From the IMG/VR virus record IMGVR_UViG_2690316028_000007: a DNA stretch of 21,361 nt, one strand, 5' to 3'. The notes beneath the pieces are model-generated. The model was given only the letters and a program-made list of their open reading frames with translations. It was not told the origin of the DNA and did not search any database. Below are positions 3,736 to 5,159 of the stretch, piece by piece; position 1 is the first letter of the stretch, and each line of letters opens with the position of its first letter. Position numbers and translations under genes: made by a program. This stretch comes from a virus. Its lineage: Duplodnaviria > Heunggongvirae > Uroviricota > Caudoviricetes.

Positions 3736-3986
3736 ATTAATATTAAATCGGATTATTTTTAGCGCTGAATGTGAAATTTAAATAAAAAGGACTCTTCCAT
3801 GAGTCAAAATCCTTGAAATCTTAAGGGTAAGATAAAAGGTCATTAGACAGAATGACACGTTTTATTAATAAATAAAGCTATTGTTTCATTCGTGTGTTTT
3901 TCTTTACAAAAGTAATCCTTGCTATGGTTGGTTAATCATGCGTTAATGGTGTTCTGGTTTGTTACAAAATTATCTGAAGCAGTCAT

Positions 3987-3995
3987 TGTTATAAT
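3987..3995 (+). promoter_or_regulatory. Candidate extended -10 element (TGtTATAAT) upstream of cspI
   Basis: TGTTATAAT read directly at 3987-3995, about 100 nt upstream of the cspI start. No good -35 found; csp genes usually have longer 5' UTRs, so the real promoter may lie further upstream. Confidence 0.3.
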
Positions 3996-4098
3996 TTTAT
4001 TATTTGTACCTCTTGAGATTTCCTTGTTGGTTTTTCTCTCTGATATTTTTTTTCGGACCATTCTGCCCAAGGGCTAACTTCTTCAAAAGGTAATAATG

Positions 4099-4311
4099 AT
4101 GTCTAACAAAATGACTGGTTTAGTGAAATGGTTTAACCCTGAAAAAGGTTTTGGTTTCATCACGCCGAAAGATGGTAGCAAAGATGTGTTTGTCCATTTC
4201 TCAGCTATTCAGAGCAACGATTTCAAAACGTTAACTGAGAATCAGGAAGTCGAATTTGGTATTGAGAACGGACCTAAAGGCCCCGCGGCTGTTCATGTTG
4301 TGGCACTTTGA
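4099..4311 (+). CDS. cspI: CspA-family cold-shock protein (70 aa)
   Basis: [38 protein letters not shown]... carries the canonical cold-shock RNP motifs. AAGG upstream. Tandem ATGs at 4096 and 4099. Long AT-rich leader. Adjacent to gnsB as in Qin. Confidence 0.9.
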
Positions 4312-4510
4312 GGTAGAAAATATTACAAACCATATTCACTTTAGATGCCCGTGTTGCCATGGTTCTCAGTATAGAACATCATCTTTTGATGTTTCTGACA
4401 GGAATCCTTTCGGGGCAAAATGTATCTTTTGTAAATCAATGATGATTACATTTGATAATATTTCACAATACTTAAATGTTAGCCGTCTGTCGTTAGATTT
4501 AAGAAAGTGA
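4295..4510 (+). CDS. Candidate zinc-ribbon small protein (CPCC...CIFC) between cspI and its terminator; start uncertain
   Basis: ORF contains [31 protein letters not shown] (CxxC-17-CxxC). The only in-frame ATG (4295) overlaps the cspI 3' end and has a poor SD. Lies upstream of the terminator at 4516-4538, so it would be co-transcribed with cspI. Confidence 0.3.
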
Positions 4511-4515
4511 AAATG

Positions 4516-4538
4516 AAGGCTCCTTCGGGAGCTTTTTT
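4516..4538 (+). terminator. Rho-independent terminator with UUCG tetraloop
   Basis: AAGGCTCC-TTCG-GGAGCTTT stem followed by TTTTTT. Confidence 0.65.
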
Positions 4539-4582
4539 GCTTAGTGTCTAGTCGATGGATACTCACATATTACGGTAACATT

Positions 4583-4813
4583 ATGAAAAAAATAATAGTT
4601 TTTTTTAACTCTGAACCAGCAATGGTAGTGCCAGTGATGACCGGAGTTAACACCATCATGCGTGAATATCCAAATGGCGAAACAACACACCTCACTGTAA
4701 TGGCTGCAGGGTTTCCATCTCTGACCGGAGATCATAAAGTCATTTATGTAGCAGCGGATCGACATGTAACTTCAGAAGAAATTCTGGAAGCAGCAATGAG
4801 ACTCTTGAATTGA
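4583..4813 (+). CDS. Hypothetical small protein (76 aa from ATG 4583; a GTG at 4544 is also possible)
   Basis: ORF MKKIIVFFNSEPAMVVPVMTGVNTIMREYPNGETTHLTVMAAG... Weak SD. Starts right after a terminator, so expression is uncertain. Could be the ynfN-like gene expected between cspI and gnsB. Confidence 0.35.
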   Translation: MKKIIVFFNSEPAMVVPVMTGVNTIMREYPNGETTHLTVMAAGFPSLTGDHKVIYVAADRHVTSEEILEAAMRLLN

Positions 4814-4985
4814 TTTGATTCTAATGCATTGATAATAAATGATAATCATCTTTATCTGTTTGTGTGAAATTTAGACCGTCGTATGTTGATTATTGCGATG
4901 TTTCATCTTATCTTTTATACGTTTGCTCCATATAATTGACACTACTGTGTACCAGGAAAGTCATAACAGACTAAAAGAGGAAATG

Positions 4986-5159
4986 ATGAACATTGAAGAG
5001 TTAAAAACAAAAACAGAAGCAGATATTTCTGAATATATAACAAAAAAAATCATTGAGCTTAAGAAAAAGACCGGGAAAGAAGTTACCAGTATCCAGTTTA
5101 CTGCACGGGAAAAAATGACTGGTCTTGAAAGCTATGATATCAAGATTGATTTAATCTAG
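4986..5159 (+). CDS. gnsB: GnsA/GnsB-family small protein (57 aa)
   Basis: MNIEELKTKTEADISEYITKKIIELKKKTGKEVTSIQFTAREKMTGLESYDIKIDLI closely resembles GnsA/GnsB as I recall them. Length 57 aa. An extra ATG at 4983 is possible. Confidence 0.85.
   Translation: MNIEELKTKTEADISEYITKKIIELKKKTGKEVTSIQFTAREKMTGLESYDIKIDLI

Follow-up and report, generated by a model that had tools for sequence, protein, structure and literature searches.

ynfQ, a four-cysteine gene of the YmcF family with an ATT start, as the likely second cistron of the cspI cold-shock unit in a Qin-type prophage

The cspI transcription unit and its genes

We analysed a stretch of 21,361 nucleotides (IMG/VR record IMGVR_UViG_2690316028_000007, hereafter the window) and focused on the interval that starts with the leader of the cold-shock gene cspI. 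The window is chromosomal E. coli DNA, the Qin-type defective prophage adjoining ydfJ-ydfI-dcp. The gene order is that of K-12 Qin and of phage Tritos, with ynfQ directly after cspI and before ynfR, ynfN and gnsB, among prophage lysis genes. The following features, all on the plus strand, were assigned:

3941-4098, plus strand: 5′ untranslated leader of cspI, a cspA-type cold-shock thermoregulator RNA, marking the approximate start of the transcription unit
4099-4311, plus strand: cspI coding sequence, 70 aa, stop TGA at 4309-4311 (RefSeq WP_000066495.1 in identical genomes)
4310-4313, plus strand: Shine-Dalgarno-like GAGG of ynfQ, overlapping the cspI stop (TGAGG), 8 nt before the ATT at 4322
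4322-4510, plus strand: ynfQ coding sequence, 62 aa, ATT start, stop TGA at 4508-4510, with C9-x2-C12 ... C34-x2-C37 (RefSeq WP_071528545.1)
4513-4551, plus strand: truncated ynfR, 12 codons (MKAPSGAFLLSV, then a stop), overlapping the terminator hairpin; a PGAP pseudo-CDS flagged 'too short'
4515-4538, plus strand: intrinsic-terminator-like hairpin and U-run directly after ynfQ
4583-4813, plus strand: ynfN, 76-aa long form, the next gene downstream (RefSeq WP_000720960.1; phrog_3425 over the full length)

The leader was identified by a match to the Rfam cspA thermoregulator (RF01766) at 3941-4357 (+), which scored 109.8 bits (gathering score 78). The cspI product matched the Pfam CSD family with E = 1.7e-31, and the NCBIfam CspG/CspA models also matched. 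The gene opens with a tandem ATG ATG at 4096-4101; a mechanical ORF runs from 4096 (71 aa), and the RefSeq protein starts at 4099 (70 aa, MSNKMTG...). At the distal end, the hairpin GAAGGCUCC-UUCG-GGAGCUUUU at 4515-4536 has a 9-bp stem and a UUCG loop, with a UUUUUU run at 4533-4538, and folding of 4500-4550 gave -15.4 kcal/mol (z -2.66). A promoter/terminator consensus scan listed the hairpin for the minus strand alone, while folding confirmed the plus-strand terminator.

The initial annotation had ended cspI at 4311 and placed about 200 nt, with a second reading frame carrying cysteine pairs, between that stop and the terminator. We read the same stop, the same interval and an open frame at 4256-4510 (+). 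Several of its details had to be corrected: cspI had been started at 4096 instead of the annotated 4099, the two CxxC pairs are separated by 21 and not 17 residues (C9PCC12 ... C34IFC37), and the ATG at 4295, taken as the only one in the frame, is joined by two more, at 4439 and 4442, that follow the motif.

Downstream of ynfQ, a gap of 2 nt separates the stop codon from the ynfR frame, which extends across the terminator hairpin. This frame is cut short by a TAT to TAG change at codon 13 and also carries G11S, the K-12 gene (b4749) encoding 21 aa. In ynfN, a run of T at 4599-4606 has 8 T in the window and 7 T in K-12, which keeps only the 51-aa C-terminal part, and the K-12 reference ynfN looks like a frameshifted allele on this comparison. 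The gnsB gene follows ynfN, within 4893-5159 of the window (annotated 4986-5159, +). Raoultella, Citrobacter and Scandinavium also have a ynfN homologue behind ymcF; of 80 ymcF-like loci, 26 have a ynfN-like gene downstream and 23 have a gns gene there. Upstream of the unit, between rzpQ and the cspI promoter, a weak rseX-like Rfam match was found at 3782-3871 (-), with 27.2 bits, below the gathering score of 50, and E = 0.88, beside a minus-strand terminator-like hairpin at 3805-3790; it is probably a chance match.

The YmcF/YnfQ family and its cysteine site

A gene behind cspI is real but ordinary in this setting, and it has already been annotated and named in the K-12 reference annotation, RefSeq and Pfam. 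By megablast, the region 4050-4600 was contained in 2,146 of 5,426 complete E. coli genomes, and all of the best 30 of these 2,146 records carry cspI, ynfQ/ymcF ('cold shock small protein YmcF'), a 'hypothetical protein' and ynfN under the match. The coding sequence of WP_071528545.1 corresponds exactly to 4322-4510 in the RefSeq records of REL606, HUE1 and 027_SK3, whose sequences do not differ from the window at this place. In K-12 MG1655, ynfQ is b4724 and the paralogue ymcF is b4723, lying 10 nt after cspI and cspG, respectively.

The K-12 Qin gene (YP_009518790.1) is the closest counterpart, sharing the locus and the order rrrQ-rzpQ-cspI-ynfQ-ynfR-ynfN-gnsB, the ATT start, the spacing after cspI and the length of 62 aa. 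The two proteins are 95% identical, with three substitutions (R27M, V54A and R61K in K-12). The loci differ in that the window cspI has GTT and not GTA, which opens the frame upstream to the ATG at 4295, and in that the window ynfR is truncated while its ynfN is full length. YmcF of K-12 belongs to the paralogous cassette cspG-ymcF-ymcE-gnsA, to be compared with cspI-ynfQ-ynfN-gnsB, and likewise has an ATT start, the 10-nt gap, 62 aa, the CPCC-21-CIFC motif and a terminator-like hairpin 3′ of the gene. In contrast to YnfQ, however, YmcF is chromosomal and not prophage-borne, ymcE overlaps the 3′ end of ymcF, and the two proteins share only about 65-68% identity, with unlike C-terminal tails.

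YnfQ matched PF23641 ('YmcF-like') with 113.2 bits against a gathering cut-off of 27 (E = 6.3e-33), and when translation is started from the ATT at 4322, residues 1-61 align to positions 1-61 of the 62-position profile. Conserved homologues with the CxxC pairs, which the initial annotation had proposed to look for, were recovered in a search of 5.8 billion proteins: all 132 homologue clusters carry PF23641 and all are Enterobacterales-like. The region is coding and not 3′ UTR. A profile search of 1.84 billion representatives returned only 42 matches; the genuine ones are all about 50-90 residues long and of the same family, and no link to a wider superfamily emerged from it. Two long repeat proteins among the candidates (P0146 and P0155) were rejected as spurious, matching through AKCIFSKS. 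The family is thus small and narrow. PHROGs v4 has no family for YnfQ. The sole NCBIfam match was to the ECs_2282 family putative zinc-binding protein (NF047912), at 17.6 bits against a cut-off of 37, and YnfQ is not a member; the likeness is that of another small prophage-associated CxxC protein, with weak similarity over residues 5-49.

Codons 2-44 of ynfQ are under strong purifying selection. Compared with the other loci, they gave a pN of 0.10 and a pS of 0.84 (pN/pS 0.12), with synonymous sites near saturation, and the C-terminal tail was looser (pN/pS 0.57). C9, C12, C34 and C37 are invariant both in the alignment and in distant members (CPxC-21-CxxC); F7, P10, G14, Q16, R18, S20, D23, N28, P29, G31, A32, K33, I35, F36, K38 and M41 are also invariant in the alignment. 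C11 and H13 vary in distant representatives (CPAC, CPTC, CPRCQ...), indicating that the predicted metal site is of the classical type with four cysteines. We infer a zinc-ribbon fold in which these cysteines coordinate a single metal ion, most likely Zn.

The AlphaFold2 model of the core (pLDDT 87-91) consists of two short hairpins that bear the CxxC pairs. TFIIE-alpha, ribosomal eL43 and the IleRS zinc domain ranked at the top of both structure searches, in which no solved relative was significant. The predicted YnfQ resembles these zinc ribbons of nucleic-acid machinery in having two CxxC knuckles on short hairpins, and a 2026 review models it as rubredoxin-like with a metal site (PMC13348028). 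A search of PDB chains with the profile of the family yielded nothing but local matches below threshold, to Rieske box II and to the zinc fingers of UvrA. A Rieske [2Fe-2S] site, which combines box I CxH with box II CxxH, was rejected: the local CP(C)CHGSQY likeness concerns box II only (E = 0.04-1), the second knuckle, CIFC, has no His, and C11 and H13 are not conserved in distant members. As for function, YnfQ may work beside the Csp RNA chaperone, with either RNA or an RNA-associated partner as its target, a suggestion that we put forward as doubtful.

The start codon and the alternative readings

To define the N-terminus, we read the codon homologous to position 4322 in 80 species-level loci encoding a YnfQ homologue (locus position 1501, L004-L083). 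Most loci have ATT (58), and the remainder have ATG (18) or ATC (4). In Klebsiella, Raoultella, Silvania and Leclercia, ATG occupies exactly the position of the ATT, which fixes the N-terminus of YnfQ. In the window, this ATT stands 10 nt after the cspI stop, and b4724 of K-12 likewise starts with ATT. A T(A/G)AGG junction with a gap of 9-10 nt is kept in 51 of the 80 loci, and the csp stop always lies inside the T(A/G)AGG there. It is this rare start codon, 10 bases beyond the stop, that prevented ynfQ from being delimited in the initial annotation.

The reading proposed there began at the ATG at 4295, overlapping the last 17 nt of cspI and giving a 71-residue product. The frame from this ATG is indeed open in the present allele, an open ATG at -27 occurs in 16 of the 80 loci, and several 71-aa entries exist in the databases (P0007, P0008, P0011, P0014, P0033 and P0070). 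However, 34 of the 80 loci have an in-frame stop no more than 27 nt upstream of the start position, and K-12 and other Qin-type loci (L004-L008) have a stop straight after the ATG in question: in K-12 it is a TAG, and the window frame was opened by the synonymous GTT for GTA in cspI. The codons at 4295 are imposed by His-Val of CspI (CAT GTN), so that this ATG is a by-product kept by the cspI frame, and the 71-aa entries are the output of gene callers that accept only ATG, or only ATG, GTG and TTG. Moreover, no Shine-Dalgarno sequence precedes 4295, while GAGG lies 8 nt before 4322; the 18 loci with ATG at the ATT position and the Pfam profile, which begins at residue 1 of the 62-aa form, speak against the longer product as well. 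We therefore regard a start at 4295 as improbable.

Still less probable is a decaying remnant, that is, a pseudogene of the cryptic prophage whose start codon was lost, which the initial annotation had offered as the other option. It would account for the lack of a canonical start at the N-terminus and for the position of the frame within the defective Qin prophage, among truncated genes. Against this, the product has 62 aa in almost all species with the constraint on codons 2-44 described above, the start lies at the same position in the chromosomal, non-prophage ymcF (ATT) and across Citrobacter, Salmonella (ATC), Kosakonia and Scandinavium, and the gene is intact in complete lambdoid phage genomes. 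Given that the start position is conserved as ATT, ATG or ATC, that K-12 has a TAG after the upstream ATG and that codons 2-44 are under purifying selection, ynfQ is neither an overlapping gene nor a remnant. What stands from the earlier proposal is a co-transcribed, zinc-ribbon-like Cys4 gene, as borne out by the RefSeq annotation (ynfQ/ymcF) and by RNA-seq (PMC11228462), but not its overlap with cspI.

Two further readings can hardly be maintained. If the region were non-coding 3′ UTR of cspI, for instance part of the cspA-type thermoregulator RNA, with the cysteine frame arising by chance, one could point to the Rfam cspA match, which continues to 4357, 46 nt beyond the cspI stop. This 3′ end of the alignment, however, corresponds to the terminator positions of cspA and is poorly aligned and uninformative, and the Pfam E value together with the conservation of amino acids over saturated synonymous sites is decisive against it. 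Alternatively, the real gene could be the antisense ORF of 66 codons at 4366-4566 (-), since a 66-aa frame with a GTG start is present on the minus strand and a CDS is annotated there in phage HannyBb (PP925841.1); yet it is the plus-strand frame that agrees with the profile of the family, with the conserved cysteines and with the pattern of substitutions, and RefSeq and phage Tritos annotate the plus strand. We conclude, with a probability of about 0.88, that 4322-4510 (+) is the ymcF-family member of the Qin prophage, ynfQ. On this reading, the gene is intact and conserved, encodes 62 residues with the four-cysteine site CPxC-21-CxxC, and stands second in the cold-shock transcription unit headed by cspI.

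The choice of start codon varied with the neighbourhood of the gene. Where a csp stop lies 9-10 nt upstream (51 loci), the codon is ATT in 46, ATC in 4 and ATG in 1; in the 29 loci with no adjacent csp, it is ATG in 17 and ATT in 12, and 3 of these 12 (Atlantibacter) have ATG as codon 2. Within ymcF-like loci, then, the start codon seems to track csp adjacency, a pattern that is suggestive only, as it comes from few independent clades. It is the only mildly new item here, ynfQ itself being already known. The lone ATG locus with an adjacent csp is that of Citrobacter sedlakii (NBRC 105722, L011, 1297-1689), where csp and ymcF are joined in one ORF of 130 codons, apparently via a frameshift near the csp 3′ end; either a genuine fusion or a mistake in sequencing may underlie this.

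Expression, possible coupling to cspI, and phage copies

Published expression data place ynfQ together with its neighbours. The RNA-seq fold changes of cspI, ynfQ and ynfN were reported as nearly equal in three conditions (6.5/5.9/5.8, 4.3/4.0/9.9 and 38/42/51), and ynfQ was described there as 'cold shock induced' (PMC11228462). In butanol, cspG, cspH, cspI, ymcF and ynfQ went down together (PMC11728337), and a YnfR-SPA fusion in K-12, encoded immediately after ynfQ, rose strongly after cold shock (PMC6001520). Together with the cspA-type leader upstream, the co-regulation with cspI and the response of YnfR point indirectly to cold induction of ynfQ. A survey of the y-ome counts ynfQ among the uncharacterized genes (PMC11551758), and we found in the searchable literature no direct experiment on the YnfQ or YmcF protein (tag, mass spectrometry, initiation-site profiling) or on its function. 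The two genes belong one to each of the two cold-shock cassettes, csp-ymcF/ynfQ-ymcE/ynfN-gnsA/B.

The occurrence of ATT or ATC with a csp stop 9-10 nt upstream suggests translational coupling. Ribosomes that finish cspI at UGA 4309-4311 would sit on the GAGG overlapping that stop, and could start again at the weak AUU codon 10 nt further on to produce YnfQ. In this way, the output of YnfQ would be a small and constant fraction of that of the very abundant CspI, and the protein would appear only while the cspI mRNA is being translated, i.e. in the cold. We give roughly even odds to such termination-reinitiation coupling from cspI to ynfQ, by which a weakly initiated second cistron would be metered against Csp and synthesized only in the cold. 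The terminator after ynfQ is probably leaky, so that ynfR and ynfN would be co-expressed. The RNA around the cspI-ynfQ junction showed no unusual structure that translation of cspI might open (folding against shuffles, z -0.12), and the AUU can work with its own Shine-Dalgarno sequence, because 12 loci keep ATT without an adjacent csp.

It also speaks against coupling that mRNAs with AUU are translated poorly in vitro, especially in the cold, although the proofreading of AUU by IF3 is weaker there as well (PMC5499595). One could imagine, though we hold this to be rather unlikely, that the AUU/AUC start and the stop inside the Shine-Dalgarno sequence form a conserved coupling device, in which YmcF/YnfQ synthesis would depend on Csp termination and possibly on cold-weakened IF3 proofreading of the start codon, the csp-less lineages having mostly switched to AUG. 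If such a device exists, the cold-shock RNA chaperones would have in YmcF/YnfQ a zinc-ribbon partner whose amount is metered stoichiometrically. Among the E. coli genes that start with AUU, the classic example, infC, which encodes IF3, resembles ynfQ in its rare initiation codon and in being cold-inducible, and IF3 discriminates against AUU less well in the cold (PMC5499595). They differ in that the AUU of infC serves autoregulation by its own product, whereas that of ynfQ sits 10 nt after an upstream stop codon. We know of no autoregulatory loop for ynfQ. The association of start codon and csp adjacency offers a cheap and testable hypothesis on how the expression of ynfQ and ymcF is set.

The cassette rrr-rzp-cspI-ynfQ-ynfN-gnsB was also found in the complete genomes of the lambdoid phages Tritos, 2H10, mEp460, HannyBb, PhiR63_1 and PhiR42_1. 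In five of seven E. coli phage records encoding YnfQ, nothing is annotated at this position; HannyBb has the antisense ORF of 66 codons, and only Tritos annotates the gene. Because of its ATT start, ynfQ is invisible to standard gene callers, and non-canonical start codons of this kind cause genuine genes to be missed in ORF-based reading and in the annotation of phages. The name itself has been used twice: the 'ynfQ' of VanOrsdel et al. 2018, a gene of 37 aa between ydfJ and ydfK, is today's ynfT and not the zinc-ribbon gene beside cspI.
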